A stretch of 45,667 bases of DNA. Origin: Candidatus Doudnabacteria bacterium (GTDB lineage: Bacteria > Patescibacteriota > JAQUNI01). Positions 2,537-44,910 of the stretch are shown piece by piece. The translations under genes were made by a program, and so were the position numbers. A model generated the notes under the pieces. It was given only the letters and a program-made list of their open reading frames with translations. It was not told where the DNA came from and did not search any database. Position 1 is the stretch's first letter. Every line of letters starts with the position of its first letter. The stretch lies in contig JBAZQX010000003.1 in assembly GCA_041644975.1 (NCBI GenBank), positions 73,530-119,196 on the forward strand, given 5' to 3'.

Positions 2537-2547
2537 AAGTCCGCCAG

Positions 2548-2629
2548 TTAGGGAACGCTGGTTTAAGTGCATATAATATTCAAGAATTGGTATTTTTTAA
2601 AAAACAATTCGCAGAAAAACGAGTTATAT
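2548..2629 (+). repeat. attC-like imperfect palindrome, family T2 (copy 1)
   Basis: TTAGGGAAC-GCTGG-TTTAAGTGC...GCAGAAA-AACGA-GTTATAT, with inner inverted pair GAATTG/CAATTC. Its first 41 nt differ at 2 positions from the copy at 8823. Confidence 0.55.
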
Positions 2630-2704
2630 GCCATTGCCCAAGAATGGAGTTAAAGATGCTAAAAAAGGATTTTGATAATTATAAACTAGTAAATCGGAGT
2701 AACT

Positions 2705-3574
2705 ATGTATAATTTAATTGTTTCTGGCAGTGATGAATCGTGGAACGGAGACCCATTTATTCTTGAAACTGCACGTTGTGTTCGCGAATACACTGATCAA
2801 GATATTACAGAAAAATATAGCAAATTTACTCAATCCAATATTAATGAAATTACGCGATTTCCTTGCATTTTTGCTTATGAGGATAGATGTAGAAAAAATC
2901 CTAAATTTGGCTTAATTAAAGAAATAGCAAAAAGGCAAAAGAAAGTGAAAATAGTTTACGAGATTATTGATTTGGAAATATTTTTAACTTATTCTGATAT
3001 TTCTGACATACAATTTGAATTGGATATTTCTGATTGGGAAATGAATAGAACACATTGGGCAATCAAGAATGTCAACTTAGTAAAAGAATTGATCGTGAAG
3101 GGTATAAAGTTACCTCAATGGGCTAAAATAGATTCGAAGGCTGTTGATATAACGAAGCATCAGTTTGAAGTTGCATTATCATTTCCCGGTGAAATTAGAT
3201 CTTATATTGAGCCAATTATCGCCGAGCTCGAAAGGGAGGTGGGGCCCAACTCGTATTTCTATGATAATAATTATAAAGCGCAATTAGCGAGACCATCACT
3301 AGATATACTTCTCCAAGATATTTATAGAAAAAGATCAAAGTTAATCGTCATATTTTTATGTAAAAAATATCAAGAAAAAGAATGGTGTGGAGTTGAATTG
3401 CGTGCGATTAAAGAAATAATTATGAGTCGCCAACATGAAAAGGTAATGTTTATTAAAGTGGATGATGGAAATGTGGAGGGCGTATTTAAGACGGATGGAT
3501 ACATTGATGGTCATAGCTACAGTCCAAAAGAATTAGCTAGATTTATTAAGGAGCGTATAGATTTGCTCTCATAA
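2705..3574 (+). CDS. TIR-domain protein (C-terminal bacterial TIR; unrecognised N-terminal domain of about 150 aa)
   Basis: The C-terminal half carries FEVALSFPGEIRSYIEPIIAEL...FYD...LIVIFLCKKYQEKEWCGVELRAI. This is the (F/Y)DVALSFAGEDR-type start and the W..E catalytic-Glu context of bacterial TIR/ThsB-like domains. Confidence 0.75.
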   Translation: MYNLIVSGSDESWNGDPFILETARCVREYTDQDITEKYSKFTQSNINEITRFPCIFAYEDRCRKNPKFGLIKEIAKRQKKVKIVYEIIDLEIFLTYSDISDIQFELDISDWEMNRTHWAIKNVNLVKELIVKGIKLPQWAKIDSKAVDITKHQFEVALSFPGEIRSYIEPIIAELEREVGPNSYFYDNNYKAQLARPSLDILLQDIYRKRSKLIVIFLCKKYQEKEWCGVELRAIKEIIMSRQHEKVMFIKVDDGNVEGVFKTDGYIDGHSYSPKELARFIKERIDLLS

Positions 3575-3597
3575 CAATACAAAATACGGGGCAACGG

Positions 3598-3731
3598 CAC
3601 ATAACAAAGCGTAGATGTGTCGCTCGGAGTACGTTGCTCGGGTTACGCCACATTTTTTACTTGTCACGGTTTTTACAAAGAGTAAAAACGCGTGCCAGTC
3701 AAAAAACGTCGTCTACGCTCAAACGTTGAAT
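3598..3731 (+). repeat. attC-like imperfect palindrome (long variant)
   Basis: CACATAAC-AAA-GCGTAGA (3598-3615) ... TCTACGC-TCAAAC-GTTGAAT (3712-3731). Internal hairpin GTTTTTAC/GTAAAAAC. Confidence 0.55.
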
Positions 3732-3836
3732 AAAATGCCACTTACATTTCAAGAGGCAAGATTTAAATTTGTAAACTACCCCGCGGCAGAGACCGCAGGG
3801 TGTTAGAATTATAAACTATTTTTATTATTGTTATTT

Positions 3837-4763
3837 ATGATGATACCAGAATACATCGGAAACGGAGCATATTGTTATGCTAACTCTGTTTCAATGATGT
3901 TAAAACACGCAGGAGAAGATATTGCTCCTTCTTTGATTGAAGTTTTATCGGGAGTAGGGGTGGGGGCGTTTTGGAATGATAAAACCAAATTAATATTTTT
4001 TAGCAATTTGGCAACTTCTCCTGACAAAGGAATAAATAATACTTTTGAACAACTGGGCTTTCAATACAAGGAATCTGTGCAGGATAATGCCGAGAATCCT
4101 CCAATGGACGAACTAAAAAAATATCTTAAATATTCACTCGCTGTAATAGGACCGATTGATATTGCTTATCTAAAAACCAAAGGAGTGAGCGAAGAACCAG
4201 GGGGAGACCACTATGCTGTCGTTTATAAAATAACGGATAATGAGGTTTGGATGCATGATCCTCAAAAATACCCGGCATTAGCAATTCTAATAAGTGAATT
4301 TAAACAAATATGGAAAGCGGAGAATATTGGATATAGAAAAGGTTTCTATCATTACTGGACTTTACCCAAGAGGATAAGAAATTTTTCATCATCGGAGATT
4401 TACAAAAATGTTATTGAACTATGTAAAAAAGTTTATCGTGATAGCAGAGATCATTCAGACGATATATCTATTGATGAGCAAGCGATTGAATCTTGTGCCG
4501 ATTTTATCAAAAATGGTCCCCGACATCTAAAAGATCATTTATTAAAATTCTGCTTTCCATTGGGAGCAAGGAGAGCATTGGATTATGGGCATTTTTTTAA
4601 TAACCACAATAAAAAACTAACTAAAATTAAAGAAAACCAAGCTGTAATATTTAGTCGCTGCCAAATTGCTGGAATGGATAACGATTGGAAGAAAGTATCT
4701 TCTCTGCTAAAAGAGCTGGCGGAGTCAGAGAAAGAATTTAAAGATATTTTGTTTTTAACGTAA
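3837..4763 (+). CDS. Papain-fold cysteine peptidase-like protein (C39/BtrH-N-like), with a helical C-terminal domain
   Basis: Putative Cys-His-Asp triad: GAYCYANSVSMML, GGDHYAVVY, VWMHDPQ. An alternative TTG start lies at 3828. Confidence 0.55.
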   Translation: MMIPEYIGNGAYCYANSVSMMLKHAGEDIAPSLIEVLSGVGVGAFWNDKTKLIFFSNLATSPDKGINNTFEQLGFQYKESVQDNAENPPMDELKKYLKYSLAVIGPIDIAYLKTKGVSEEPGGDHYAVVYKITDNEVWMHDPQKYPALAILISEFKQIWKAENIGYRKGFYHYWTLPKRIRNFSSSEIYKNVIELCKKVYRDSRDHSDDISIDEQAIESCADFIKNGPRHLKDHLLKFCFPLGARRALDYGHFFNNHNKKLTKIKENQAVIFSRCQIAGMDNDWKKVSSLLKELAESEKEFKDILFLT

Positions 4764-4768
4764 ATGCG

Positions 4769-4851
4769 CCCGAACCTAAATGTTTAAGCGCATACAATAT
4801 TCAAGAATTTGTATTTTTTATAAACACAATGCGCATAACAACGAGTTGTAG
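4769..4851 (+). repeat. attC-like imperfect palindrome, family T2 (copy 2)
   Basis: CCCGAAC-CTAAA-TGTTTAAGCGCAT ... ATGCGCATAACA-ACGA-GTTGTAG. The stem GCGCAT/ATGCGC is perfect. It shares the core ATATTCAAGAATT..TATTTTTTA with copies 1 and 3. Confidence 0.55.
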
Positions 4852-4871
4852 AAAATAAATTCTAGCCTAAG

Positions 4872-5213
4872 ATGAAAAAAACAAACTTTTCATTTAAAAA
4901 AGATAAATATAAGTCTGCTCGAGGCGGTCATTCAAGACTGCTTAATGTTTGTTGCCGTAAATGCGAGAATGTTGTCCTTGTTTATCAAAAAGATGGTCCG
5001 GGTAATTTACGACGTTTATATATGGACAGGATATTTGATCCTGCCGAGTTAACCGGACTGCAAGCCTTGAGCATAAAAGACGTTCCGGCATTAAAATGCA
5101 AAAAGTGCGGCGAAGCGCTTGGCACGCCTTATATTTATATCAAAGAAAAACGAAAAGCTTTTAGGCTGTACCAAGACGCGGTCATTAAGAGATTAAGAAA
5201 GTTGAGCGAATAA
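4872..5213 (+). CDS. Hypothetical zinc-ribbon protein
   Basis: Two CxxC pairs (CRKCENV ... CKKCGEA), basic N- and C-termini. No family recognised. Confidence 0.5.
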   Translation: MKKTNFSFKKDKYKSARGGHSRLLNVCCRKCENVVLVYQKDGPGNLRRLYMDRIFDPAELTGLQALSIKDVPALKCKKCGEALGTPYIYIKEKRKAFRLYQDAVIKRLRKLSE

Positions 5214-5236
5214 CAACGGCGGCTGGAATTTACATC

Positions 5237-5313
5237 CCGCAACACCGAATATCTGTTTTCGCTTCGCTTCACCCAAATTGCTATGCAGCTTCAGATATGC
5301 CGATACGTTAGGC
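5237..5313 (+). repeat. attC-like imperfect palindrome, family T1
   Basis: CCGCAAC-ACCGA-ATATCTG ... CAGATAT-GCCGATAC-GTTAGGC. The central part is nearly identical to the copy at 8170-8247. Confidence 0.55.
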
Positions 5314-5338
5314 TAAATTGCCAAATTTAAATAATACT

Positions 5339-5551
5339 ATGGCTACTTACAAAAAAATAATAAATTATGTCAAGAATAAATATGGTTTTACTATAAAAAC
5401 TTGTTGGATTGCACATGTAAAAGAAATCTGTGGGTGTAACCCAAAAATTGCATTAAATAGAATTAGTTTGAATGATAGAGTTAATCCTTGTCCAAAAGAA
5501 AAATTGGAACCGATAAAGGATGCTTTAAGACACTTCGGAATGATAGAATAA
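5339..5551 (+). CDS. Small conserved hypothetical protein (about 70 aa)
   Basis: ATG at 5339 (MATYKKIINYVKNKYGFTIKTCWIAHVKE...); the ORF track starts at TTG 5318. No confident family assignment. Confidence 0.5.
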   Translation: MATYKKIINYVKNKYGFTIKTCWIAHVKEICGCNPKIALNRISLNDRVNPCPKEKLEPIKDALRHFGMIE

Positions 5552-5563
5552 TTTGGCCACATC

Positions 5564-5606
5564 GCCTAACACGGGATATCTAACTTCGCCTATCGATACA
5601 TTATGC
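5564..5606 (+). repeat. Short or degenerate attC-like element, family T1
   Basis: GCCTAAC-ACGG-GATATC ... TATCGATAC-ATTATGC. The 3' end aligns with GCCGATAC-GTTAGGC-TAAATTGCC of copy 5237-5313 but is mutated. Confidence 0.4.
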
Positions 5607-5649
5607 GAAATTACCAACAAATTTATATTCTAAAATTTAACATTATTTT

Positions 5650-6354
5650 ATGTCAGACAAAACTGAAGGGACATTTGCCCCAGAACAAGAAGGAGGGAGG
5701 GGTATAGAAGTCCTAAATTTGCCAGAAGTTAGAGTAAGCTCTGCCTTATTCGCTAGAATTCGTGATAGCCAAGGAAGATATGCGCTTCTTGTGAACAAAA
5801 ATAGAGCAAAAAAGGGAGATATCTTACTAACTCCGATTGGTGGCGCAATTGAAGCCACTGAAGAAGGTTTGCAAAGCCTTCAACAACTTCTTGAAATTGA
5901 GAAAATTGCTTTTGAAAAAGGAAATGATTTACGCTTCCGTATGCCAGGAAAAAAGGCCAATGAATTTAGGGCATGGTTTCTTCAAAGACAACAGAGAGAG
6001 ACGAACCCAATAAGAGAAGTTGTTGAAGAACTTGTTGATGAGGCAGAGCTATTAAAAAAAGAAGATCTTGGTGAGCTTCAGTGTGACTTGGTCGGCTTTG
6101 ATACTGAGCTGGAGGAAACAACACGTATAGGGCAAGAAGGACAAATGACCCTTCGCTTATTGGAAATATTTGAGGCGGGATTAAAAGCTGAAATTCTAAC
6201 CAAATTAGAAGAATTATCTAATCAACCAAACGCAGTTATTTATTTTGCAACCGCCGAAGAAATACAAGCTGGACAAACTAATGATGGAATTAAGATTAGT
6301 AAATCATCCAACTCTCTGCTGAATCCAAAAGAAACGATAGAACCGTTCATATAA
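5650..6354 (+). CDS. Hypothetical protein, possibly a divergent Nudix fold
   Basis: YALLVNKNRAKKGDILLTPIGGAIEATEEG resembles the Nudix strand plus GG..E. A REVVEEL motif follows later. The canonical Nudix box is not intact. Confidence 0.35.
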   Translation: MSDKTEGTFAPEQEGGRGIEVLNLPEVRVSSALFARIRDSQGRYALLVNKNRAKKGDILLTPIGGAIEATEEGLQSLQQLLEIEKIAFEKGNDLRFRMPGKKANEFRAWFLQRQQRETNPIREVVEELVDEAELLKKEDLGELQCDLVGFDTELEETTRIGQEGQMTLRLLEIFEAGLKAEILTKLEELSNQPNAVIYFATAEEIQAGQTNDGIKISKSSNSLLNPKETIEPFI

Positions 6355-6370
6355 ATTTATTGGCAACATC

Positions 6371-6462
6371 ACATAACAGCGTATATCTGGTGAGGTCTCT
6401 TTAGAGAGACCTCACCCATATCCTCACTTCGCTCGGACATCAGATATAGGCAAACGTTAGGC
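6371..6462 (+). repeat. attC-like imperfect palindrome, family T1
   Basis: ACATAAC-AGCG-TATATCTG (6371-6389) ... CAGATATA-GGCAAAC-GTTAGGC (6441-6462). The inner perfect hairpin is GTGAGGTCTCT-TTA-GAGAGACCTCAC. Confidence 0.6.
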
Positions 6463-6527
6463 AAAATCGCGCTGATTTTTATCTTAAATTTAAAATATAC
6501 ACAAACTAACTATTAACACGTACAATT

Positions 6528-7181
6528 ATGGAAAATCAAATTAATCCACAACAAACAAAGAAAACTCAAAGCTCTAAAATTATTTTGGTTGTTGTTATTT
6601 CTGTTATCGCTATAACTTTAATAGTCGGCGGCGGTATTTATTTGTGGCAAAATTCTAAACTGAAATCCGCAAAAAATAATTTACAACTCAAACAAAACGA
6701 GCCTTCTTCTGTTACAGCTGATAAAGAAGGATGGTCAAGTTACCAAAGTCAAAAATGGAATTTTCAGTTTCAATATCCATCAAATTATGTATTGGACACA
6801 ACTTATGAAAATAAGTATGCCGATCAAGGTCACCTCCATCTATATGACACCCCCATCTATGAAGCTATAAAAAAAGGAGAAATTATTGAGGGAGCGCCTT
6901 TAATTGAATTTTCAGCGTATAATAATCCGGATAAGCTTTCCGCGCTCCAATGGGCTAAAAAAGATACGGCGCGCTCTAATTTTTCCGAAGAATATAAAAC
7001 TACGCAGGTTGATAACAGAGACGCTATGTCATATTCTTGGACCGGCTTGGGTGGAGGAGACACAATTCTTCTGACAAGTGATGATTTGGAATATATTTAC
7101 AGCTTTCATGTTTTGTATATGAATGAGAATGAGAAAATAAGAAATGATTTTTTACAAATAGTTAAAACTATAAAATTTTAA
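6528..7181 (+). CDS. N-terminally membrane-anchored or secreted hypothetical protein
   Basis: One N-terminal TM helix (IILVVVISVIAITLIVGGGIYLW) followed by a soluble domain of about 150 aa. Confidence 0.6.
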   Translation: MENQINPQQTKKTQSSKIILVVVISVIAITLIVGGGIYLWQNSKLKSAKNNLQLKQNEPSSVTADKEGWSSYQSQKWNFQFQYPSNYVLDTTYENKYADQGHLHLYDTPIYEAIKKGEIIEGAPLIEFSAYNNPDKLSALQWAKKDTARSNFSEEYKTTQVDNRDAMSYSWTGLGGGDTILLTSDDLEYIYSFHVLYMNENEKIRNDFLQIVKTIKF

Positions 7182-7197
7182 AAATCAGCGCAACATC

Positions 7198-7285
7198 GCC
7201 TAACAGCATATATCTGACTCGGCTCTTACAGTCACTTGACCCATATCCACCTCGGAGGGACATCGGATATCTGTGAACTTGAGGC
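7198..7285 (+). repeat. attC-like imperfect palindrome, family T1
   Basis: GCCTAAC-AGCA-TATATC ... GGATAT-CTGTGAAC-TTGAGGC. The 3' box deviates from GTTAGGC. Confidence 0.5.
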
Positions 7286-7330
7286 GAAATTTTTCAAAAA
7301 ACAATCTATTTTTATAATTTGAACAATTTT

Positions 7331-8125
7331 ATGCCAGAAGTACCAGGCTACAATCCAGAAAAAGAAAAAACAGTTGAACTAAATCCAACGGAAATGGAGC
7401 CCCTGACAGCATACAATGAAGAATTTTTTATTTCACATGTTGAAGAAGGACAAGATGTATTGGTCGGTCAAGGATTAGCTGATGGAGATTTCTATATAAG
7501 ATGTGATTTTTCGGCCTTTGCTGAAAAACTAAAAGTGGTTACACCCGAAAAGTTGGCAGAACTTTTCGCCGCTGCCGGCAAGCTCGAACAACAGGCCCCT
7601 AATTTGGATGAAGATACTCGAAAATTATTAAATTCATGCTGGAGGACTACAAGAATAACAAGAAATCTTCTCGGTGATGTAGGTTCAGAATTCCAAAGAA
7701 ATCAAAGCTTTCATGAGTATTCAACAAGAACAGTGGATGGTAAAAAGGTTTGTATTAAGCCTATTTCCAAAAGTCAGGGGCAGGCAGTTTGTGCTGAATA
7801 CGCTTTAATGGCCCACCATGTCTTAGAGAAGCTGGGTATTCAATCATCAATTATTGTCGGTGCATTTTCAGAAAATCCCAACGATCCGCTTGCCGACAGA
7901 CACACTTTTCTTGTTTTGGAAAATGGCAAATATGTATTTGATCCAACCCACTCAGCACTGCAAAAAGACAGCTGGCCCCCAAAGGTATTTACCCCTGAAA
8001 CCCCCCTTACTGTTGAATCTCTAAGAGACATGGAAACGGACGATAATAAACCATTCGGCCGAAAAATCATATGTACGGATTTACTCACAAAAAAAGAAAG
8101 GATTTATGGATCGGGAGCAGTATAA
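7331..8125 (+). CDS. Transglutaminase-like / papain-fold thiol enzyme
   Basis: Cys-His-Asp arrangement: GQAVCAEYALMAHHVLEKLGI, ADRHTFLVLENG, YVFDPTH. The ORF track begins at TTG 7319; the ATG is at 7331. Confidence 0.55.
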   Translation: MPEVPGYNPEKEKTVELNPTEMEPLTAYNEEFFISHVEEGQDVLVGQGLADGDFYIRCDFSAFAEKLKVVTPEKLAELFAAAGKLEQQAPNLDEDTRKLLNSCWRTTRITRNLLGDVGSEFQRNQSFHEYSTRTVDGKKVCIKPISKSQGQAVCAEYALMAHHVLEKLGIQSSIIVGAFSENPNDPLADRHTFLVLENGKYVFDPTHSALQKDSWPPKVFTPETPLTVESLRDMETDDNKPFGRKIICTDLLTKKERIYGSGAV

Positions 8126-8169
8126 AATTGTTCAAACTATTTTTAGGGTATTTGTTTTGGAGATACATC

Positions 8170-8247
8170 GCCTAACACTGAATATACGGTTCCGCTTCGC
8201 TTCACCCAAATTGCTATCGCAGCTTCAGATATTCGGATATATTGAAT
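8170..8247 (+). repeat. attC-like imperfect palindrome, family T1
   Basis: GCCTAAC-ACTGA-ATATAC ... CAGATAT-TCGGATAT-ATTGAAT. The centre CGCTTCGCTTCACCCAAATTGCTAT.GCAGCTTCAGATAT is shared with 5237-5313. Confidence 0.55.
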
Positions 8248-8308
8248 AAAATACCACTTACATTTCAAGAGGTGAGATTCAAATTGATGATAAATTTATA
8301 AAATCGCA

Positions 8309-8438
8309 TTTCATGGCTACGCCAGATCTTTAGACAGTCCCGAGGCCGTTCAGGCTCCGAAGAGCCTTCAGGCTCGAGGAGACTTCAGGCTCGAGGAGAC
8401 TTCAGTCCGAAGGTCGTTCAGACCCGAAGGGATCTTTA
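8309..8438 (+). repeat. Palindromic repeat cluster (TTCAGNC.CGAAGG family) inserted in a cassette leader
   Basis: CATGGCTACGCCAGATCT is the reverse complement of 27660-27677. Tandem CTTCAGGCTCGAGGAGA units are present. The same family occurs at 27640-27720, 33925-34015, 38095-38215 and 39385-39500. Confidence 0.6.
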
Positions 8439-8471
8439 GAAAAAAATTATTAACTATTAACCAAAAAACAA

Positions 8472-8810
8472 ATGGAAAACCTTGAACAAGAGGGGGGAAA
8501 TATTAATACCGAAGAAATTAAGAGGGAAAATATTGATATCGAAGAAATCAAAAGATTTTATGATGTGATAGGCACCAAAATGCGTAATTTCACAAGACCA
8601 TCCGGAAAACTGAATGTGGAAGCCTATGGGAGATTTATGGATTTTATGGATAAATTGGAAGAGAAATACGGAAAAGAAGAATTACGAAAATACGCGGCAT
8701 TCCATGCGGCAAGCGGCAGCAGTATTCTGGAGGACGAATTTGTTGACATCACAAGGCTTGATCTTCCGGGTGGAGATTCCATAGAGGATTTTTTTGACTC
8801 ACAAAAATGA
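8472..8810 (+). CDS. Hypothetical acidic protein (paralog A)
   Basis: Full-length homology to the next ORF; the C-terminal FVDITRLDLPGGDSIEDF is identical in both. Confidence 0.6.
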   Translation: MENLEQEGGNINTEEIKRENIDIEEIKRFYDVIGTKMRNFTRPSGKLNVEAYGRFMDFMDKLEEKYGKEELRKYAAFHAASGSSILEDEFVDITRLDLPGGDSIEDFFDSQK

Positions 8811-8822
8811 GCTATCCACCAA

Positions 8823-8905
8823 TTAGGGAACGCTGGTTTAAGCGCGTATAATATTCAAGAATTAAAATTTTTTTAGAAAACAATTCATATAAGAACGAGT
8901 GAAAC
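8823..8905 (+). repeat. attC-like imperfect palindrome, family T2 (copy 3; 3' box degenerate, GTGAAAC)
   Basis: TTAGGGAAC-GCTGG-TTTAAGCGCGTATAATATTCAAGAATT...CAATTCATATAAG-AACGA-GTGAAAC. Confidence 0.5.
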
Positions 8906-8973
8906 GAAATTTTGTTCAATAAATATTTTTTTATTTTTTATTAAAAAATTATTAACTATTGACGAAAAAACAA

Positions 8974-9312
8974 ATGGAAAACTTGGAACAAGAGAGGGGA
9001 AATATTGATACCGAAGAAATTAAAAGGAAAAATATTGATACCGAAGCAATCAAGAGGTTTTGTGATGTGATAAGAACCAAAAAGGATAATGCTATAAGCC
9101 CATCCGGAGAACTGAGCGAGGAAGCCTGGGATAGACTTACGGATTTTATTCAACAATTGAAAAACAAATACGGACAAGAAGAATTACAAAAATACGCGGC
9201 ATTCCATGCGGCAACCGGCAGCAGTATTCCCGAGGGCAAATTTGTTGACATCACAAGGCTTGATCTTCCGGGTGGAGATTCCATAGAGGATTTTTTGGAC
9301 TCACAAAAATGA
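8974..9312 (+). CDS. Hypothetical acidic protein (paralog B)
   Basis: MENLEQERGNIDTEEIKR... parallels paralog A. The same roughly 35 nt leader (AAAAATTATTAACTATT.AC.AAAAAACAAATGGAAAAC) precedes both. The ORF track starts at TTG 8959. Confidence 0.6.
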   Translation: MENLEQERGNIDTEEIKRKNIDTEAIKRFCDVIRTKKDNAISPSGELSEEAWDRLTDFIQQLKNKYGQEELQKYAAFHAATGSSIPEGKFVDITRLDLPGGDSIEDFLDSQK

Positions 9313-9364
9313 ATAGACCAAGATAATATTTTTCTATCGGCAAAATAAAACTTTTCATTACATC

Positions 9365-9452
9365 CAGTGACAGCATATATCTGGCTCGCTCCCTGCAGTC
9401 AATTGACCCATATTCACTTCAGGCGGATATCGGATATCCGCGAACGTTATTG
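9365..9452 (+). repeat. attC-like imperfect palindrome, family T1
   Basis: CAGTGAC-AGCA-TATATCTG ... GCGGATATC-G-GATATCCGC-GAAC-GTTATTG. Confidence 0.5.
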
Positions 9453-9537
9453 GCAGTCGTTCGGGCTTAAAGAAAGGAGATAAGAAACATTTATTATTTA
9501 TTATTTAAATAATGATATTAAAAACATCGGAGGGTAT

Positions 9538-11538
9538 ATGAAAAAAATTCTAATCTTATTCTGCGCTCTAGCTGCTGTTTTTTTGATTATCCCAGTAATT
9601 CCAGATGCCAAAGCCGAGGACTTGCCGAGCGGGGTTATTCCCAAACTGCCGAAAACGCAAAATGACCCTATTCTTTCCGAAGGCAAGGTTTATCCTTTTT
9701 GGGGACCGGTATGCCAAAGATACACTTATTCCGTGATTTATCAAGATAAAGAAGGGAAGGCGCCGGAATATGTTAAGATTTATTTCAACGGCAAAATGAT
9801 AGACATGGAAAAAGCGGACACTCAAGATAATAATTATAAAAAAGGAGTGAAATATATTTACAAGAATGTCCCAAACAAATTTGGCTCTAATTTTTATTAT
9901 TTTGAGGCTTCGAATGGACTTGGCAAAACGCGCGATTCAATTATTGATTCGCCAGATAACGGACCAGTGCTTTTTGACGCTGATCTTAAAGAGAATGAAA
10001 TTATTTTGATTGATCCTGAAAGTGGAAACCTAAAGTGGCGCTATCCAATTCAAGAAGAGTGGGTCGGCGGAGTCGCTTTATCTTCCGATGGGAAATACTT
10101 GGCGGCGCAAACTTCCAATCATATTTATTTTTTTGATACGGAAAAAAGCGAGCCTTCTTGGAGCTATCAAGGTCCGGTCGGCGGCGCGATCGGCGGAGAT
10201 GTTAAAGGCGGAGTAGCGATTTCGGCTAATGGCGATAAAATTTTTGCCGCTTTAAATGGTAAAGCATTGATGTTTAACAAAGACTCCAATAAACCTATCT
10301 GGACTTATAATTTAGGTAATAATGGCGGTGGAGCTTATGGCGTGGATATTGCCAAGAACGGTGCATACGCGGCAGTGGCAATGGCCGGATCAGAGGAAGA
10401 TCAAAATAGTAATGTTTTGATTTTATTTGACGCCCAGGGTAAAAAATTATGGCAATATCATTCCGCGGGCAACTGGCATGAGGTTAATTTATCACAAGAT
10501 GGTTCATACATTGCCGGATCAACAGGTTGTCCGGATCGAAGGGGTTATCTTTTTGCCAAAGATTCGGCTGAACCAATAATCAAGTCCGAACCTTTATCTA
10601 AAGAATCACCAATTGACGAGGCGCGCATATCAGCTCAAGGCAATTTAGTCGCCTTCGGGGTTGAATCCAGTTATGGCGCGATTGTTTTAATGGACGCGCA
10701 AAAAAAGGAAATTTTGTGGAAATACAATACTGAATATGGGAAATCCGTGCGCGCGCTGGCAATGACGCCGAGTGGAAACTTGATCGGCGCAGGCACTTTT
10801 GGCGGCGATATTTTAATTTTTGAAAAAAATTCAGATAAGCCTATCGAAAAATTAAAAATTAATTCCGCGATTGGCGCTTTTGATTTGGCGGATGACGGAT
10901 CACTTTTCGCGACCGGCTCCGCGGATAAAAAAATCCGAATATTTGAAAAGGGAGCGGGAAGGGCAAAAGCGGAGATTTTAGCGAATGAATATGTTGGTGA
11001 ATTGGATATCGCAGGGAATGGAAAATATTTAGCCGCGGGTACAAGCGGTTCGGTGTATTTTTTTGAAACTATCACTGATTTAGCGAATAAGGGGATTTTT
11101 ACCTGCAAGGAAATTATAGAACCCAAAGCAGAAGATACCACCTTGTTTGGCGGACAAAATAGCGGAAATAATTTGGCGGACAATGCAGATAATCAAGAAA
11201 AGCCAGTGGAAAAAGAAACATCTTCTTGGCTTACGCGGGGCGCAATAATTTTTGGAGGGATAATGATGATCGTGTTGATTGGTTACATTTTAATTTGCCG
11301 CAAACGCGCGCGACCGCCCAAAAAGTTGATTATTATTTTAATATCATTTTTAATAATACTTTCCCTGATAATTGCTATTTATTTTAGCCAAGGGAAAAAG
11401 GTTGAGTCTGACAAAAACGCGAGTAAAGACCAAAATCAAAAAGAAACCCCTGAAAATATCTGTGGAAATACTTTGTGCGAGCCCAATTTGGGGGAAACAA
11501 AGGAGAATTGCGCCAAAGACTGCTTAGGCGGGGAATAA
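9538..11538 (+). CDS. Secreted, membrane-anchored beta-propeller (WD40/PQQ-like repeats) protein with a Cys-rich tail
   Basis: Signal peptide, then about 8 repeats of the type DGKYLAA.T...IYFFD / GSADKKIRIFEK. Two C-terminal TM helices and a CGNTLCEP...CAKDC tail. RBS GGAGGG lies upstream. Confidence 0.65.
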   Translation: MKKILILFCALAAVFLIIPVIPDAKAEDLPSGVIPKLPKTQNDPILSEGKVYPFWGPVCQRYTYSVIYQDKEGKAPEYVKIYFNGKMIDMEKADTQDNNYKKGVKYIYKNVPNKFGSNFYYFEASNGLGKTRDSIIDSPDNGPVLFDADLKENEIILIDPESGNLKWRYPIQEEWVGGVALSSDGKYLAAQTSNHIYFFDTEKSEPSWSYQGPVGGAIGGDVKGGVAISANGDKIFAALNGKALMFNKDSNKPIWTYNLGNNGGGAYGVDIAKNGAYAAVAMAGSEEDQNSNVLILFDAQGKKLWQYHSAGNWHEVNLSQDGSYIAGSTGCPDRRGYLFAKDSAEPIIKSEPLSKESPIDEARISAQGNLVAFGVESSYGAIVLMDAQKKEILWKYNTEYGKSVRALAMTPSGNLIGAGTFGGDILIFEKNSDKPIEKLKINSAIGAFDLADDGSLFATGSADKKIRIFEKGAGRAKAEILANEYVGELDIAGNGKYLAAGTSGSVYFFETITDLANKGIFTCKEIIEPKAEDTTLFGGQNSGNNLADNADNQEKPVEKETSSWLTRGAIIFGGIMMIVLIGYILICRKRARPPKKLIIILISFLIILSLIIAIYFSQGKKVESDKNASKDQNQKETPENICGNTLCEPNLGETKENCAKDCLGGE

Positions 11539-11608
11539 AAAATAATCAGAAAATTTTATGAATAGGTTAGCAAAAATACTTTTAATCACCAAGAGCGTGC
11601 GGACTTTT

Positions 11609-11678
11609 GGCTCGGCTCTTATAGTCGCTCGACCCATATCCGCTTCAGGCGGATATCGGATATCCGCGAACTTGAGGC
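11609..11678 (+). repeat. Truncated family-T1 element (3' half only) at the end of the array
   Basis: GGCTCGGCTCTTATAGTCGCTCGACCCATATCCGCTTCAGGCGGATATCGGATATCCGCGAACTTGAGGC aligns with the 3' two thirds of 7198-7285 and 9365-9452. The RYYYAAC / TATATCTG 5' part is absent. Confidence 0.5.
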
Positions 11679-11707
11679 GACATTTTCTTTTAAAAATTGC
11701 TTTTGTT

Positions 11708-17253: not shown

Positions 17254-17426
17254 AAATAGAATCTAGAAGGTAAAAGATAAAATTTCTAATTGCTCTAATT
17301 GACCTAATTTCTAAATAATGACCAATACCCAATTTCTAATGTCTAAAACTTCTCTTTGGTCATTGGTTATTAGACATTCCTGATTTATTTAGAAATTAGA
17401 AATTAGGTTAATTAGAAATTCGTAAT
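17254..17426. repeat. Intergenic palindromic / low-complexity repeat block (AATTAGAA family)
   Basis: TCTAATTGCTCTAATTGACCTAATTTCTAAATAATGACCAA...TTGGTCATTGGTTATTAGACATT...TTAGAAATTAGAAATTAGG. Relatives occur at 25974-26210, 27606-27640, 32102-32313, 33901-34082 and 42795-42850. Confidence 0.7.
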
Positions 17427-17819
17427 ATGCTATTCAAATCCTTATCTTGTCTGTTTTTAATAGTTATTGGCTTCTCTTTATTCGCGCCCTCAAGCAACGC
17501 GGCTTTAGTGCCTTGCGGCGGCACGGGGCAAGACGAATGCAATCTTTGCCATTTCTTTGTCTTAATCCAAACTATCTTTCAATATCTGCTTGGATTTTTG
17601 GGAATCGTGGCGCTGCTCATCTTTGTCATCATTGGCTTTATGTTTTTATTCGGTTCCACCAATGAAGGTCTGCTCACTACCGGCAAAAAGGCTCTTACCA
17701 GCGCGATAATTGGTCTTGTCCTGGTGCTCGTCGCTTGGCTTATAATCAACACTGTGGGCCACGCCATAGGTTGGACGCAACAAGACAGCTGGTGGAAACT
17801 TGACTGCGTATCAGAATAA
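17427..17819 (+). CDS. TrbC/VirB2-like (T4SS-pilin-like) small membrane protein
   Basis: Signal peptide plus two TM helices flanking the loop FGSTNEGLLTTGKKALTSAIIGLVLV, which is the family signature shared by the five downstream genes. Confidence 0.65.
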   Translation: MLFKSLSCLFLIVIGFSLFAPSSNAALVPCGGTGQDECNLCHFFVLIQTIFQYLLGFLGIVALLIFVIIGFMFLFGSTNEGLLTTGKKALTSAIIGLVLVLVAWLIINTVGHAIGWTQQDSWWKLDCVSE

Positions 17820-17820
17820 A

Positions 17821-17850
17821 CCCCGTTAGAGAACTTTGTTTCTAACGGGG
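17821..17850 (+). terminator. Hairpin repeat (CCCCGTTAGA family), possible terminator or attenuator
   Basis: CCCCGTTAGA-GAACTTTGTT-TCTAACGGGG. The same arms recur at 34787-34890. The T-tract is weak. Confidence 0.4.
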
Positions 17851-17933
17851 TAAAAACATTTTTATAATTTCAAAGGATGTCACTCGCGAGCCACGTTGTT
17901 CGCGAACGACGTGGCGAGCGACATCCTAAAAAA

Positions 17934-20900
17934 ATGAACACAAAATCTGTTTTTAAACTTCTATTTCTTTGTTGTATAATCTCTATACTCGGATTTTCTG
18001 TTGCGCATTCTGCTCTAGCGATTAGTGTTGAATTGCAAAACCCCCTCAGTGGAACAGAAACGGTCACAGGGCTCATTAATAAAATCACGGGCTGGGTTTT
18101 AGGCATCGCGGGTTCTATTATGATGATTGTTTTGATTTTCGCGGGTTTTCGCTATTTAACCGCCGGCGCTAATGAAGACAGGGCCAAAAGCGCCAAAAAA
18201 ATGTTGACTTGGGCGATTATTGGCATTGCGGTAATCGTCGGCGCGGCCGCGATTACCAACGCGGTGATGGACGCGCTGGGCGTGCCTGACACTACTACCG
18301 GCGGGGGGGGAGGGCAGGCAAACGTGGCGGCGGCTTTGGACACAATAGAATTGGCTCCGGAGGGCGATCTCAATGGAGATGGAGAAATCAACGCCGGAGA
18401 TACGATAAATGTTGTTGCTAATTTAACTAATAATACTGACCAAGATATTACTCTAAACAACGTCCGTCTTATCGCGGTCGCGGCTGGCTCCGCAACGGGA
18501 ATGAATAATTTTGAGCAAGGGGACAAAAAAAAAGTAGCAGGGGTGAGCACATTAATCGCTGACGAACAAGAAATTCTTGAATGCGGCTACAGGGAATACT
18601 GGATTATCAGAGAATTTGGTCCGATTACCGTTAAAGCGCGGGAAACCGTCGGCTTGAACTCGGAATGGACAGTTCTCAATATTCCGGATGATATTTTGAT
18701 CCAATTAGAAACATCAGACGCAACCCAGCAACAAGCCTGCGAACTTTTAGGCAGGGTGCCGATAGATGGAGGCGAGAGCGGAACTAGCGGCTTATTAATT
18801 TATGCGAACCACACAGTGAAGAGAAGCAGCATCGAAGAGGGCGGAGAGCCTAAAGTCGCGCCCGGCGCAGAAGTCACAATAGAGGTCTGCCTAAAGAACG
18901 ATAACGCCGAAGGCGGCGAAGAAATCTCCGCGAGAGCAGTAAATCTCTCCCCGCAAGAGGAAGGGGTTAGTGTCTCCAATAACCCGCGTAGGTACGCGGG
19001 GGTAGATCCCCAGGAAGAAAAATGCGAAGACTACGACTTTTCAATCGCGGCAGATTACGAACCAACGTCAATCAATTTTAAAATTCAAGGGGCAGCGTCA
19101 GATGACAAAGTCAGCGAAGCTAATATCAAGGTGGATTTAGGTACAGGAGGAGGAGGAGAGGAAGGTGAATGCAGCAATAGCAGCGGCTGCGTGACTTTCC
19201 AAAAATATATCATTCAAGATAGCTCTATTGGCGGATCAAGGCCAAACGCCAAGGTCGTTCCCGGAGCGACCGTTATGATGGATGTTTATTTGGAAAATAA
19301 AACCAGCACAGACTTTGGGGACACTGTACAGGCAACTCTTAGCTCCAGCGACGTTGAGGTCAAAACGGGCAATCCGGGGGAATATAGAGGAATGGGTCCT
19401 AAAATTGAAGGTAAAAGAATAGAAGACGACCATAGCAGATACACATTTGAAATCCCGGTGGGTTATGCTAAAAATTCCATAAGTTTTACGATCCAAGGAA
19501 GCAAAGTAACCTCAACAAACTTTAATGTGCCGTTGGACACAAGTTTCAAACCGAATTTAACCGCCGGCGATTTCGGATCCGGAATAGGCAACGCGCTAGT
19601 GGTCAAGGGCACCATCCTGCATCCTACTTTTTCTATTAAGAACTCCGGCGCGATGGCTCTTGCCGCGAATCAAGATTTTAACGTTGAATTCTACGCCTGC
19701 TATGGCGCCGACGCGGCTGCCTGCGCTGGATTAACCAGTAATCCAGACTATAAGTTCCACTCTGGCAGCGCTAGAGGAAATGCCGCTTGGTGGTACCAGG
19801 ACGGAAGCATACCGGCAGGAGGAGACGTGATGGTGAAATATCCCTTAGATTTCAGAGTCGAAAAATCGGGCAATCTCTATTTCGGCATTAAATTAGACAC
19901 GGGCAACAGTGTTAATGAAAGCAACGAGAATGATAATACGGGCGGACCGTACGAAGTGGAAATCGCTAGCTGGAACGCGGAGGTCAAAGAATTGACTTTA
20001 GACGATGATCCGACCCAGGGGACTAGAATCACTTATATCGATCCTCCAGCAAATACCAAAATAGTTTATCGCGGTTCATTTAAAATCACGAACACCGGAA
20101 CGGGCGACACTAATCTGGGTTCAACGGATTTTTATTACAAAATTGACCTTATTGACGGATCTTGCGCGGAATCCACTAAAGGATTATATAATAGTCAGGA
20201 ACAACAATTAGAGGGCTATCTTCTTCCCGGCAACTCTGTGATTAAAAACTTGGGAATTGATACGAGGGAGAATTATCCGTTCACTTGGCAGCCTGGAAAA
20301 TCTTACAGAGTAAGGATTGTATTGAAGGATCACAGTACACTTAAACGAATACCCAATAAAGTGGTTTGCGCCAAGGCTTTCACCTATGGCGGGGAGGCTA
20401 TACCCACTTATAACGCCAAGGTTCTAAGCGCGAGTCTTGCTCTTACGGAAACAGGGGACGTTAACGTATATGGCAAGGTAAGAAATGACAGCACGAAAGA
20501 CGCGAACGTTAGCTATGCCTGGAGAATTGATAAAAACAGCAGTGGCGCGACGGATAGCTTTGGCTGTTTACAAAACGCTTCTACTTATAATTCAGGCGAA
20601 GGTATGAACACGGGAATGCCCACGGGCGCTGAAGTTACAATCAGTAAAAAAATCGCCAAACCAACTGAAAATGGATATTACCAATCAGTAGTCACGGCAA
20701 GTGTTTCCGGGGATACGGACGCAACGGATAATAAAAAATGCTCTATTCCTCTTAAAATAGAAAATGGCGGAACAATACCGCCGCCTACAGAACCTGCCAT
20801 ATATTACGACATGGAGGCAAGTAAGGCGGAATTGAGTTATGATCCTGCCGCTAACCGATTTAAGCTCAGTTTATGCGTCAAAAATCACAGCACTCAAAAT

Positions 20901-21659
20901 GGTCAAGTTTATAGCGGTTTTATAGGATATTACTCCTGGTCTTTAAGAAGAGGTGGCATCAAATCTGTGGACGCTTCAATGAGCGGTTTTACGGTCGGAT
21001 CAGGTGAACAATGTTTTGAGGATGACTCATACCAAACAGAGCTTGGCGATTATCGGTTTTCTTTAATTACCAGCCTGGGCAACCAAAATATAGATGTTAA
21101 TCCCGGCAATGATTCCATATGGTCCAATACGGTAACAATTTCCGAATCTCCCCCCGCACTACCCCCATCCGCTCCAGCTGACTACAAGACAGAAATCTCT
21201 ACTTACGGCATGACCGCTAATCCGCCGGATAACCCCGGGACTTATAATTACCGCATTATCTACCAAAACAAAAGCACCCAAAATGGTCAACCGATTAGGG
21301 CAAATGTGAGTTGGGGCGTTAAGATGCTGCGCAGCAGCTCTTGGTCAGAGAATTGCCCGGCAAGCGGCGGGTCTCCGGTATTCTCATATAACACAGTCAC
21401 CGATAGTCAGAATGGCATTTTCGTGGATATGTACGGCGATAGTTTTAAACCACCGAGCCAAGGATATTATCATTTAGAGGCTTGGGCTGGGGTTAGCGGT
21501 TACGAAGACAGTAAAAGCTATAAATGCACTAGCGTGGTGCATTATATTCCCGCCACTTCCGCAAGTTTAGACCTCTCCCGCGCTAATGCCTTCGCGCTGC
21601 CACTTTTGGACGAGCAAATCAAAAATTTCTGGCAAAAATTGCAGGAAGTGATAAAATAA
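17934..21659 (+). CDS. Giant surface protein: N-terminal TrbC/VirB2-like pilin domain fused to multiple CARDB-like beta-sandwich repeats
   Basis: Signal peptide MNTKSVFKLLFLCCIISILGFSVAHSALA, then IAGSIMMIVLIFAGFRYLTAGANEDRAKSAKKMLTWAIIGIAVIV. At least 7 repeats follow of the type V.PGA.V...V.L.N.....G. The ORF-track start 17877 lies inside a palindromic repeat, so ATG 17934 is preferred. Confidence 0.7.
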   Translation: MNTKSVFKLLFLCCIISILGFSVAHSALAISVELQNPLSGTETVTGLINKITGWVLGIAGSIMMIVLIFAGFRYLTAGANEDRAKSAKKMLTWAIIGIAVIVGAAAITNAVMDALGVPDTTTGGGGGQANVAAALDTIELAPEGDLNGDGEINAGDTINVVANLTNNTDQDITLNNVRLIAVAAGSATGMNNFEQGDKKKVAGVSTLIADEQEILECGYREYWIIREFGPITVKARETVGLNSEWTVLNIPDDILIQLETSDATQQQACELLGRVPIDGGESGTSGLLIYANHTVKRSSIEEGGEPKVAPGAEVTIEVCLKNDNAEGGEEISARAVNLSPQEEGVSVSNNPRRYAGVDPQEEKCEDYDFSIAADYEPTSINFKIQGAASDDKVSEANIKVDLGTGGGGEEGECSNSSGCVTFQKYIIQDSSIGGSRPNAKVVPGATVMMDVYLENKTSTDFGDTVQATLSSSDVEVKTGNPGEYRGMGPKIEGKRIEDDHSRYTFEIPVGYAKNSISFTIQGSKVTSTNFNVPLDTSFKPNLTAGDFGSGIGNALVVKGTILHPTFSIKNSGAMALAANQDFNVEFYACYGADAAACAGLTSNPDYKFHSGSARGNAAWWYQDGSIPAGGDVMVKYPLDFRVEKSGNLYFGIKLDTGNSVNESNENDNTGGPYEVEIASWNAEVKELTLDDDPTQGTRITYIDPPANTKIVYRGSFKITNTGTGDTNLGSTDFYYKIDLIDGSCAESTKGLYNSQEQQLEGYLLPGNSVIKNLGIDTRENYPFTWQPGKSYRVRIVLKDHSTLKRIPNKVVCAKAFTYGGEAIPTYNAKVLSASLALTETGDVNVYGKVRNDSTKDANVSYAWRIDKNSSGATDSFGCLQNASTYNSGEGMNTGMPTGAEVTISKKIAKPTENGYYQSVVTASVSGDTDATDNKKCSIPLKIENGGTIPPPTEPAIYYDMEASKAELSYDPAANRFKLSLCVKNHSTQNGQVYSGFIGYYSWSLRRGGIKSVDASMSGFTVGSGEQCFEDDSYQTELGDYRFSLITSLGNQNIDVNPGNDSIWSNTVTISESPPALPPSAPADYKTEISTYGMTANPPDNPGTYNYRIIYQNKSTQNGQPIRANVSWGVKMLRSSSWSENCPASGGSPVFSYNTVTDSQNGIFVDMYGDSFKPPSQGYYHLEAWAGVSGYEDSKSYKCTSVVHYIPATSASLDLSRANAFALPLLDEQIKNFWQKLQEVIK

Positions 21660-21730
21660 AATCACAGCGCAAGCAATGAGGCGCCGCGAGCGGCTAAAAA
21701 AACACAAGATTAAAATCAAATAAAAAACCA

Positions 21731-22285: not shown

Positions 22286-22340
22286 TTGTTTAAATTTAAG
22301 TATTTTATATTATCCTAAAGAAAGGAGGTGAATTAAACTA

Positions 22341-22748: not shown

Positions 22749-22812
22749 AATAATATCCTTGCTGCCCTATGGTATAGGGAATTAAGTGTGGTTTTATATT
22801 CTTCCGGAAAAC

Positions 22813-22854
22813 AAAAACAGACCCCTAAACTTAATGGTCTGTTTTTGCTGTTTT
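22813..22854 (+). terminator. Rho-independent terminator
   Basis: AAACAGACC-(12 nt loop)-GGTCTGTTT followed by TTGCTGTTTT. Confidence 0.55.
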
Positions 22855-22912
22855 GTCAAATTATTCTGGATGCATTATAATAAAGCTAAATTGAGTTACG
22901 AAATTCATTTTT

Positions 22913-23030
22913 GTCATTGCGAGGGATCCGCCCTAGGCGGAGACCGAAGCAATCTCCTAAATCTGTATTAATACAGCTCGATGAGATTGCTTCGTCGTCC
23001 CTCGACAAGCTCGGGACTCCTCGCAATGAC
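22913..23030. repeat. Long palindromic element (CATTGCGAGG...CGAAGCAATC family)
   Basis: GTCATTGCGAGGGA...GACCGAAGCAATCTC...GAGATTGCTTCGTCGTCCCTC...CTCCTCGCAATGAC. The same family flanks the GIY-YIG gene at 24240. Confidence 0.7.
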
Positions 23031-44905: not shown

Positions 44906-44910
44906 AACCG

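Follow-up and report, generated by a model that had tools for sequence, protein, structure and literature searches.

In integrons, the IntI-specific domain of the integrase and the extrahelical bases of the attC site are regarded as the features that enable single-strand, structure-specific recombination, and standard surveys define integrons by both. The additional domain lies around patch III and is the basis of the intI_Cterm profile of IntegronFinder. Here we analyse a stretch of 45,667 nucleotides from Candidatus Doudnabacteria bacterium (assembly GCA_041644975.1, contig JBAZQX010000003.1, positions 73,530 to 119,196, forward strand), which we call the window and in which positions are counted from the first letter. 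An earlier note, made from the sequence alone, had proposed an integron-type cassette array without an integrase in this stretch. Our results indicate that the region 2540-11680 is probably a chromosomal array of about ten cassettes that belongs to an integron-like site-specific recombination system of the Candidate Phyla Radiation (CPR)/Patescibacteria.

The IntIs of archaeal integrons are reported to have the IntI-specific domain; IntegronFinder detects the attCs of these integrons, and IntI1 uses them (PMC9668308). Candidate phyla are not listed by IntegronFinder 2 (PMC9024848), and we found no report of integrons in CPR/Patescibacteria in the full-text literature, the coverage of which is incomplete, so that an earlier description is possible. 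In permafrost, 97% of the contigs with 'integron-type' recombinases were without a complete integron, and undetected attC types have been suggested (PMC13323075).

Structure and conservation of the repeat elements

The region contains ten open reading frames (ORFs) on the + strand (2705-11538) and eleven repeat-type sites in all, i.e. eight copies of a family named T2 (E2, E4 to E8, E10 and E11) and three copies of a family named T1 (E1, E3 and E9), with the coordinates given in Table 1. Mechanical repeat finding recovers both families, T2 as repeats D3, D10 and D16 and T1 as D6, D9 and D11. The coordinates and boxes quoted in the earlier note are all correct: GCCTAAC at 5564, 7198 and 8170, ACATAAC at 3599 and 6371 and CCGCAAC at 5237 on one side; GTTAGGC at 5307 and 6456, GTTGAAT at 3725, GTTATAT at 2623, GTTGTAG at 4845 and GTTATTG at 9446 on the other; and the inner pairs 6382-6389/6441-6448 and 3609-3615/3712-3718 between them. 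The ten co-oriented ORFs are real open frames as well.

On the top strand a T2 element begins with the R'' box (C-NNN-[T/C]AAC), which a single base (A) separates from an 11-bp stem; inner hairpins of variable sequence come next, and the 3' half consists of the stem complement, four bases ([A/G][A/T]AC) and the R' box (GTT[A/G]-NNN-G). The R''-L''...L'-R' architecture of an attC, which had been claimed for these elements, thus holds for T2, but its spacing is not the canonical one, the gaps being 1 nt (5') and 4 nt (3') and the stem 11 bp long. The (1,4) spacing is found in 151 of 185 distinct elements, and the elements measure 73-258 nt from R'' to R', with a median of 98 nt. Of 156 parsed elements, 149 contain AAC and 140 contain GTT, while the outer four bases fit the R/Y pattern loosely. 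R1, a covariance model of T2 that was searched against the window with filters off, gives eight matches, all of them on the + strand and within 3588-11687, and none in the other ~34 kb, in agreement with the claim that the repeats are confined to this block.

Minimum-free-energy folding of single elements gave uneven z-scores and often missed the R/L architecture, and for this reason we relied on comparative covariation. Counted on 124 distinct T2 copies in an alignment fitted to the model, which favours structure, 11 of the 12 pairs of the L helix vary on both sides and 96% of the cells are paired. The covariation score is 0.374, as compared to 0.120 in column shuffles (the observed value was reached by 0 of 500) and at most 0.056 with slid partners. 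An independent MAFFT alignment recovers the same stem.

Crossover signature

The R'' and R' 8-mer repertoires mirror each other across the family, yet they are unmatched within an element. The partner of an R'' box is found one cassette upstream: in 51 consecutive pairs, R'' complements the upstream R' perfectly, i.e. at each of the five variable positions, in 32 cases (63%, mean 4.20 of 5), as opposed to 4 cases (8%, mean 2.65) for R' of the same element, 2 cases (mean 2.53) for R' of the downstream element and 6% (mean 2.61) for random inter-locus pairs (permutation p < 5e-5). The complementarity runs 15-22 nt past the R box into the leader of the cassette itself; the mean local score of this extension is 12.4 vs 7.3, and the upstream value is the higher one in 37 of 51 pairs (Wilcoxon p = 6e-7). 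Complementarity of R'' to the R' of the preceding element is what integron biology predicts for a crossover at G↓TT (the arrow marks the point of exchange), which would hand the bases after GTT to the next cassette. In circular form each cassette's R'' would then pair with its own 5' end.

Seven of the eight junctions of the window have this upstream complementarity. R'' of cassette 1 (CACATAAC) stands against R' of E1 (GTTATATG), and the R'' boxes of cassette 4 and of E7, both CGCCTAAC, are exact complements of GTTAGGC, the R' of E4 and E6, respectively. Pairing of leader and trailer scores 11 vs 7 for cassette 3, where the leader after E3 pairs with the cassette's own trailer, 18 vs 8 for cassette 5 and 19 vs 8 at E7.

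Cassette gain or loss at this position is seen in two nearly identical loci, L008 (a Yanofskybacteria metagenome-assembled genome, MAG) and L115 (a metagenome contig). The two share 99.93% identity across 2923 bp, a stretch that comprises a recombinase remnant, the attI-type site and two cassettes, and the homology ends completely just after ...GCCGAAACGTTA (...AACGTTA), at the R' box. The two loci split at GTTA, meaning that the cassette content changes exactly at the predicted crossover point.

Distribution of T2 elements

A strict pattern derived from both halves of E4 and E6, in which 23 bases are fixed and the gap may be 30-60, was found at 14 loci among one-genome-per-species contigs, nearly all of them CPR, where about 0.5 would be expected by chance according to a hand estimate from the pattern length and the collection size. 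The hosts are Peribacteria, Magasanikbacteria, Yanofskybacteria, Komeilibacteria, Gracilibacteria, Parcubacteria and 'uncultured Gammaproteobacteria' MAGs, and a similar pattern is present on at least 120 metagenome contigs. A genome scan with a pattern from the E7/E10/E11 sub-family gave no match. With R1 and an nhmmer profile, 261-269 T2 copies were counted in 132 other loci among the matches listed, nearly all from CPR/Patescibacteria, with up to 8 copies per locus. The copies of a locus share one strand, mixed strands being present in one locus only. The median interval between copies is 1.0 kb, and in 103 of 114 intervals the longest ORF has the orientation of the array. The cassettes themselves are hardly shared, as an all-against-all comparison of 118 cassettes gave just the L008/L082/L115 group and one other pair in common between different arrays.

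Two further features of the loci outside the window deserve mention. Nine loci (L003, L004, L006, L015, L141, L145, L146, L152 and L158) come from MAGs labelled 'uncultured Gammaproteobacteria/Pseudomonadales', one of which is an 886-kb chromosome. The labels look doubtful, since these MAGs carry CPR-type elements and recombinases. The other feature is a module of about 100-130 nt that occurs as leader and trailer in many other CPR cassettes, the two being mutual inverted repeats (L013 2030-2160 and 893-1010; leaders of L003, L005, L038 and L116). The conserved trailer reads GTTTTGGGCTCGGGCATTCACCCC...GCCCAAAAC with a covarying hairpin, and the conserved leader GAAATATTCCTTTTCTTTTTCGGGCTATCGCCC...AAGGTGTTTTC..GAAAAC. 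Once such a cassette is circular, its palindrome would thus extend over several hundred nt.

The array-head recombinase and the attI-type sites

Screening for the box II motif yielded ten element-bearing loci with a tyrosine recombinase of about 280 aa, which in each case lies at the 5' end of the array and is transcribed away from it. Its relatives in species genomes (at least 47% identical) are almost all from CPR. When the test was reversed, 8 of 9 close CPR relatives with at least 1 kb of upstream flank had T2 upstream on the opposite strand, and the same holds for the more distant CPR loci L182, L189 and L214; many other recombinase matches are at contig ends, as is to be expected where repeats break assemblies. 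On the array side of the recombinase gene, 28-150 nt from the start codon, there is a motif, TTCG[C/T]ATAAnAACGA↓GTT[A/G]nnnGAAAT, that we term attI-type. It has 30 matches vs 4 in shuffled sequence, one per locus and at the array head. About 20 related loci have recombinase and motif together at the array head, arranged divergently as is classical for intI. In L008/L082/L115, L026, L079, L107 and the window, only a truncated recombinase gene or none at all is present beside the site.

The T1 elements of the window carry the same motif, which is degenerate in E9, and box 2 of E1 fits the array-head form TTCGCATAAnAACGA↓GTT. T1 aligns over about 70 nt with the recombinase-adjacent sites, including the second box GCATATAATATTCAAGAATT, and folds weakly as a single strand. 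Judging from its sequence, T1 is thus an attI-type site and not an attC. The earlier description of this family as a palindrome with a GGGAAC/CCGAAC inverse core is not borne out, and a second class of attC, which we had also considered for T1, was dropped after the alignment with the recombinase-adjacent sites. Downstream of E1 and of E3, the next cassette opens with a sequence complementary to its own R'' and trailer (after E1: 13 vs 5), and so these two sites served as insertion points, with crossovers predicted at G2623↓T2624 and G4845↓T4846.

The presence of two attI-type sites, E3 and E9, inside the array is a peculiarity of the window, as the motif is found once, at the head, in 29 other loci. 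The two units that end in them, units 2 and 8 (3726-4845 and 8242-8899), have a common 5' end TTGAATAAAATGCCACTTACATTTCAAGAGG (starts at 3726 and 8242) and are homologous over TTGAATAAAATnCCACTTACATTTCAAGAGG (3726-3775 and 8242-8290), which in circular form would adjoin T1. This suggests units bearing a whole attI-type site that entered attC sites, or else a fusion of decayed platforms. An R'' box of T1 may be seen in TATTCAAG, which agrees with the 5' ends of units 2 and 8 (TTGAATA); this assignment rests on two related copies.

Among the solved structures the best relative of the recombinase is VchIntIA (2a3v), with 169 bits in two pieces; the XerA structures score 146-148 bits, continuously from end to end, and the XerD structure 90 bits. 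The identity to IntI1 of R100 is 32-42%, R146, K171, H277, R280, H303 and Y312 are conserved, and the Pfam architecture (Phage_int_SAM_4 + Phage_integrase) is that of IntI1. The NCBIfam XerC and XerD models score 175-202 bits, below their cut-offs of 330-335. On the basis of these sequence comparisons the enzyme is IntI-like but devoid of the IntI-defining domain; an insertion-bearing IntI was seen in none of about 200 loci.

A short recombinase of the same kind (44-47% identity) with the same attI-type motif also occurs in L161 (Thermodesulfobacterium), L162 (Spirochaetota), L165 (Methanosarcinales) and L196 (Undinarchaeales), and consequently the system is not confined to CPR. In these four loci the motif is downstream of the recombinase gene and co-oriented with it ('inverted integrase' layout), and in L161 two T2-like model matches follow downstream.

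Proposed mechanism

The 132 other loci, the R''/R' signature, the L008/L115 breakpoint and the array-head recombinase with its attI-type site all support the original proposal of an integron-type cassette array without an integrase. We propose that a cassette is a unit that starts with TT-NNNNG and a leader, contains a single ORF in array orientation and closes with a recombination site of 73-258 nt. When single-stranded, the site would fold into a long hairpin whose outermost stem would be made of the cassette's own 5' leader and 3' trailer. Further inward there would follow the R box (C-NNN-YAAC/GTTR-NNN-G), a 1 x 4 nt internal loop, the 11-bp L stem and the variable hairpins. The recombinase of about 280 aa, kin to IntI and XerA and encoded divergently by the attI-type site (TTCGYATAAnAACGA↓GTT), would insert circular cassettes at attI and excise or reshuffle them between sites, with strand exchange at or next to G↓TT. 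Neither the recombinase gene nor an intact set of sites is present in the window, and because of this we consider the array CALIN-like (cluster of attC sites lacking integron-integrases) and partly fossil. It would be mobilisable only by a recombinase that is encoded elsewhere.

Several observations weigh against this interpretation. Firstly, the T2 stem is unlike that of an attC in that its positions are 86-100% Watson-Crick and gap-free, there are no extrahelical (bulged) bases and the spacers have 1 and 4 nt; moreover, the asymmetry of wobble pairs in the T2 stems pointed to neither strand as the folding strand. Secondly, the search with an attC covariance model, which the earlier note had named as a check, speaks against it as far as the canonical model is concerned. 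For this search a model named R2 was built from 14 class 1 attCs from plasmids (aadA1, aadA2, aadA5, aacA4, arr-3, dfrA12, dfrA17, dfrA27, gcuF, blaOXA-1, estX, psp, cmlA1 and qacL); it is home-made and narrower than the model of IntegronFinder, i.e. a proxy only. R2 detects canonical attCs that it had not seen (ereA2 25 bits, arr-2 32 bits) and gave no match to any window element at E <= 10. In the opposite direction, R1 did not match the aadA1 attC of a class 1 integron.

Thirdly, the recombinase has 16 residues where VchIntIA has 59, and three gaps of about 42 aa in total fall opposite IntI1 207-259 (the ALER/patch III region). Its score with the NCBIfam integron-integrase model TIGR02249 is 201-224 bits at a cut-off of 265, the match being split in two. 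The IntI-specific region has been reported to be necessary for IntI activity, as far as the work is represented in later papers (Messier & Roy 2001, cited in PMC9668308; PMC8138268), and the classification of tyrosine recombinases assigns the Xer-related enzymes of candidate phyla to a group 'Cand', the presumed substitute of Xer (PMC8138268). Finally, the array of the window is damaged. The centre of E5 is mostly gone, E11 has lost AAC, E9 has GTG for GTT, and E7 and E11 have TTG. A tyrosine recombinase was found neither in the 45.7-kb window, as had been noted before, nor in the 10 kb upstream of it on the source contig (regex; tblastn best E = 0.015). Both assemblies that contain the array have it in identical form, and current activity is therefore not apparent here.

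There is, however, a link between the first and the third of these points. Sites without extrahelical bases would fit a recombinase without the IntI domain, because there are no bulges for the domain to hold, as can be judged from published IntI structures. We see about even chances that the system is a distinct, so far unrecognised integron lineage, a 'minimal' or proto-integron in which a short IntI/Xer-like recombinase without the IntI domain runs attI, folded attC sites and arrays. If so, the recombinase may be the very enzyme that is assumed to be the Xer of candidate phyla, and the lineage would be widespread in CPR, with kin in some archaea, Thermodesulfobacteria and Spirochaetes.

Alternative explanations

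The recombinase of about 280 aa could instead be the cell's chromosome-dimer resolvase, a member of the 'Cand' group, and the attI-type site its dif (cf. XerS/difSL), with the cassettes as IMEX- or pdif-like exploiters (IMEX, integrative mobile elements exploiting Xer) piling up at dif. The logic of recombination is the same as in the integron-like system, and we regard this alternative, the one to be taken most seriously, as unlikely. It draws on the match of the recombinase to NF040815 (recomb_XerA_Arch) at 205-245 bits, with 6 of 10 sequences above the cut-off of 220, on the end-to-end alignment with XerA structures, on the missing IntI insertion and on the presumed role of the 'Cand' group as a replacement of Xer (PMC8138268). 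It also draws on the attI-type site, which directly adjoins the recombinase gene and looks dif-like when read from the sequences, with an arm, a 6-nt centre and another arm. However, an essential resolvase is not expected to be truncated or absent as in the loci listed above, and one MAG has more than one array (L003 and L015). The cassette sites need a complementary, covarying half with R''/R' pairing, whereas a double-stranded dif-type site does not, and the recombinase is nearer to IntI (169 bits) than to XerA (148) or XerD (90). The GC skew of the window shows no terminus signal, but it follows the coding strand and is uninformative on the location of a terminus or dif.

That the array is an ordinary CALIN, i.e. 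a row of canonical attCs served by an insertion-bearing IntI elsewhere in the genome, with the short recombinase being incidental, seems to us quite improbable. Many R boxes do fit RYYYAAC/GTTRRRY (e.g. GCCTAAC and GTTAGGC), the crossover position is the canonical one, CALINs are common, and attCs of distant taxa are usable by IntI1 (PMC9668308). But the 14 canonical attCs, when aligned, have a 7-nt R'', a 5-nt spacer and an 8-nt L'' with a bulged fourth base in the 5' half, and in the 3' half L' and R' of 7 nt each on either side of a spacer of 5-6 nt, from which the T2 geometry with its perfect 11-bp stem departs, and R2, which detects the attCs of ereA2 and arr-2, finds nothing in the window. 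In addition, the short recombinase is at the array head in 8 of 9 testable CPR loci, and no insertion-bearing IntI was seen at any of the loci inspected.

The least credible alternative, to which we give hardly any weight, is that no recombination system is involved and that T2 represents repetitive extragenic palindromic (REP) or miniature inverted-repeat transposable element (MITE)-like elements, intrinsic terminators or a structured RNA of the 3' untranslated region: T2 is indeed located directly 3' of stop codons on the coding strand, some elements fold well as single strands (E6 z = -4.5) and the sequence is unusually conserved among CPR lineages, but Rfam 15 has no match to it at gathering or permissive thresholds (window and 12 loci), so that a known structured RNA was rejected, the clustering in strictly one orientation per array argues against dispersed REP/MITE-type repeats, the complementarity of R'' to an R' box 0.5-3 kb upstream has no RNA or terminator rationale, the homology breakpoint is exactly at GTTA, and T2 is linked to the recombinase and the attI-type site.

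Cassettes and flanks of the window array

The features of the array are collected in Table 1. As had been noted before, the cargo is accessory. It comprises a TIR protein, a C39-like peptidase, a SMODS-associated NUDIX protein, a secreted beta-propeller, a paralog pair and small ORFs. PADLOC, run on the array cargo, matched the NUDIX ORF of cassette 5 to effector models and nothing else. The ORF of cassette 3 has homologs directly downstream of an attC-like element in L016 and adjoining one in L034.

Table 1. Features of the cassette array and its 5' flank in the window. R1 values are bit scores with the T2 covariance model; the arrow marks the predicted crossover.
Feature	Position	Strand	Details
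GIY-YIG gene, 78 aa	2300..2536	+	Pfam GIY-YIG E = 6e-12; flank of array head
E1, attI-type (T1), array head	2540..2629	+	box 1 GCATATAATATTCAAGAATT; box 2 CAATTCGCAGAAAAACGA↓GTTATAT; motif at 2608-2625
Cassette 1: TIR-domain ORF 2705-3574 + long attC-like E2 (3599-3731)	2624..3725	+	Pfam TIR_2; R1 17 bits; R'' 3599-3605, R' 3725-3731; parse AAC-1 nt-stem...stem-4 nt-GTT
Unit 2: peptidase C39-like/YobF_C ORF 3828-4763 + internal attI-type E3 (4764-4851)	3726..4845	+	Pfam; motif 4830-4847; alignment
Cassette 3: 113-aa ORF 4872-5213 + attC-like E4 (5237-5313)	4846..5307	+	R1 71 bits
Cassette 4: 77-aa ORF 5318-5551 + internally deleted E5 (5564-5606)	5308..5600	+	R1 24 bits; R' ATTATGC
Cassette 5: SMODS-associated NUDIX ORF 5650-6354 + E6 (6371-6462)	5601..6456	+	Pfam Sa_NUDIX E = 6e-25; R1 87 bits
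Cassette 6: 217-aa ORF 6528-7181 + E7 (7198-7285)	6457..7278	+	R1 86 bits; R' variant AAC↓TTGAGGC
Cassette 7: 268-aa ORF 7319-8125 + E8 (8170-8247)	7279..8241	+	R1 63 bits; R' ATTGAAT; junction 10 vs 7
Unit 8: 112-aa ORF 8472-8810 + internal attI-type E9 (8811-8905)	8242..8899	+	repeats D6, D9; attI alignment; R' GTGAAAC, degenerate
Cassette 9: 117-aa paralog ORF 8959-9312 + attC-like E10 (9365-9452)	8900..9446	+	R1 78 bits
Cassette 10: 666-aa secreted beta-propeller ORF 9538-11538 + last site E11 (about 11590-11678)	9447..11678	+	Pfam PQQ_2/WD40; R1 68 bits; R'' decayed to CCAAGAGC; R' AAC↓TTGAGGC

An 84% identical duplication (8435-8734 and 8937-9236) gives rise to the paralogous ORFs of 112 and 117 aa in neighbouring units. 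The unit of the first copy closes with an attI-type site and that of the second copy with a T2 site. In the leader of unit 8, short repeats of tandem or palindromic type (TTCAGGCTCGAGGAGAC-like) follow one another at 8309-8438. In E7 (7279-7285) and E11 (11672-11678) the R' box reads AAC↓TTGAGGCG where AAC↓GTTAGGCG would be expected, as if G and TT had been swapped at the crossover.

The window opens inside a 23S rRNA gene that carries a LAGLIDADG ORF, followed by the 5S rRNA and tRNA-Ser (2126-2215). The Rfam large subunit (LSU) match spans only the model positions 2048-2912, from window position 617 onwards, and for this reason we take the 23S rRNA gene to be intron-bearing. LAGLIDADG homing-endonuclease ORFs within the 23S rRNA gene are found at 19-438 in the window and also in L017 (7537-8034 and 9001-9624). 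The GIY-YIG gene fills the slot where related loci have the recombinase gene. L026 has a GIY-YIG homolog (1001-1234) likewise about 70 nt upstream of the attI-type motif, beside a recombinase gene that is reduced to a fragment (residues 96-217). In both places it looks as though a mobile GIY-YIG gene has displaced the integrase.

An ENA metagenome contig of 103 kb and a Logan contig of 6 kb contain the identical array sequence. These were found by exact-protein look-ups, which returned the same arrangement alone, in two assemblies, and no strain variants. Outside the array, there is a cluster of five ORFs at 17427-23473 with type IV secretion system (T4SS)-pilin (TrbC/VirB2-like) domains, including a protein of 1260 aa, with an 83% internal duplication (22497-22702 and 23222-23427). 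These pilin-like paralogs, the rRNA region at the start of the window and the relatives of the array are in keeping with a CPR/Patescibacteria genome. CTAATT-rich direct repeats (TCTAATTGNTCTAATT) near gene starts (17275-17309, 25974-26127, 27606-27640 and 32098-32151) possibly represent a regulatory motif or a promoter. A further family of small palindromes (GATCCTGAAATAAATTCAGGATGACA) has four intergenic copies at the far end of the window (44608-45456).

Significance and comparison with known systems

If our interpretation is correct, the array would serve CPR bacteria, with their tiny genomes, as a platform dedicated to gene capture, and its cargo includes surface or secreted proteins as well as defence-like domains (TIR, SMODS-associated NUDIX). 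A cassette system that has neither the IntI-specific domain nor extrahelical bases would widen the definition of integrons and provide a testable model for their origin from Xer-type recombinases. It could also help to explain why metagenomic 'integron-type' recombinases are mostly without a detectable attC array (PMC13323075). If the system is a proto-integron, it would stand either for the ancestral stage that links Xer to IntI or for an independent way of recombining folded single strands, and it would be invisible to surveys that are based on the integrase.

How does the system compare with those already described? It shares with integrons the divergent tyrosine recombinase with an adjacent primary site and the co-oriented, single-ORF cassettes of about 1 kb, each of which closes in an imperfect palindrome with AAC...GTT boxes. 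As in integrons, the crossover is at G↓TT, making each R' a hybrid, and the structure of the sites is kept more than their sequence, with a variable centre. By mechanism, then, the system works like an integron, while formally it falls outside on three defining features. The CPR recombinase is without the IntI-specific insertion of about 42 aa and stays below the TIGR02249 cut-off, the T2 sites have a perfect L stem, short spacers and no extrahelical bases, their pairing reaches 15-22 nt past the R box, and the canonical attC model R2, a proxy, does not detect them.

The likeness to a CALIN (Cury et al. 2016, IntegronFinder) lies in the at least eight attC-like sites in one orientation with no recombinase in the window or the 10 kb upstream. 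A CALIN has at least two attC sites and no integrase nearby, and the array belongs here provided that T2 is accepted as an attC. Unlike in a CALIN, three attI-type sites are kept, and the sites are of the non-canonical CPR type. The archaeal integrons (PMC9668308) are also arrays outside the classical hosts, mostly CALINs in MAGs and with a semi-conserved attI by intI, but their integrases are reported to have the IntI-specific domain that the CPR recombinase is without. On the archaeal side, the Methanosarcinales (L165) and Undinarchaeales (L196) MAGs have the short recombinase and the same attI-type motif.

The remaining comparison is with Xer/dif and its exploiters (XerS/difSL, XerA, IMEX such as CTX-phi, Acinetobacter pdif modules) and the 'Cand' group. 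Here, too, a short 'simple' recombinase without an arm-binding domain is encoded next to its site, the primary site is built as arm, centre and arm, and modules pile up in tandem. The differences are that T2 elements are long hairpins with covarying stems and R''/R' pairing, that the arrays have up to 8 or more single-gene units, that the recombinase is decayed or absent in several loci, and that, where it is present, it scores nearer to IntI than to XerC/D.

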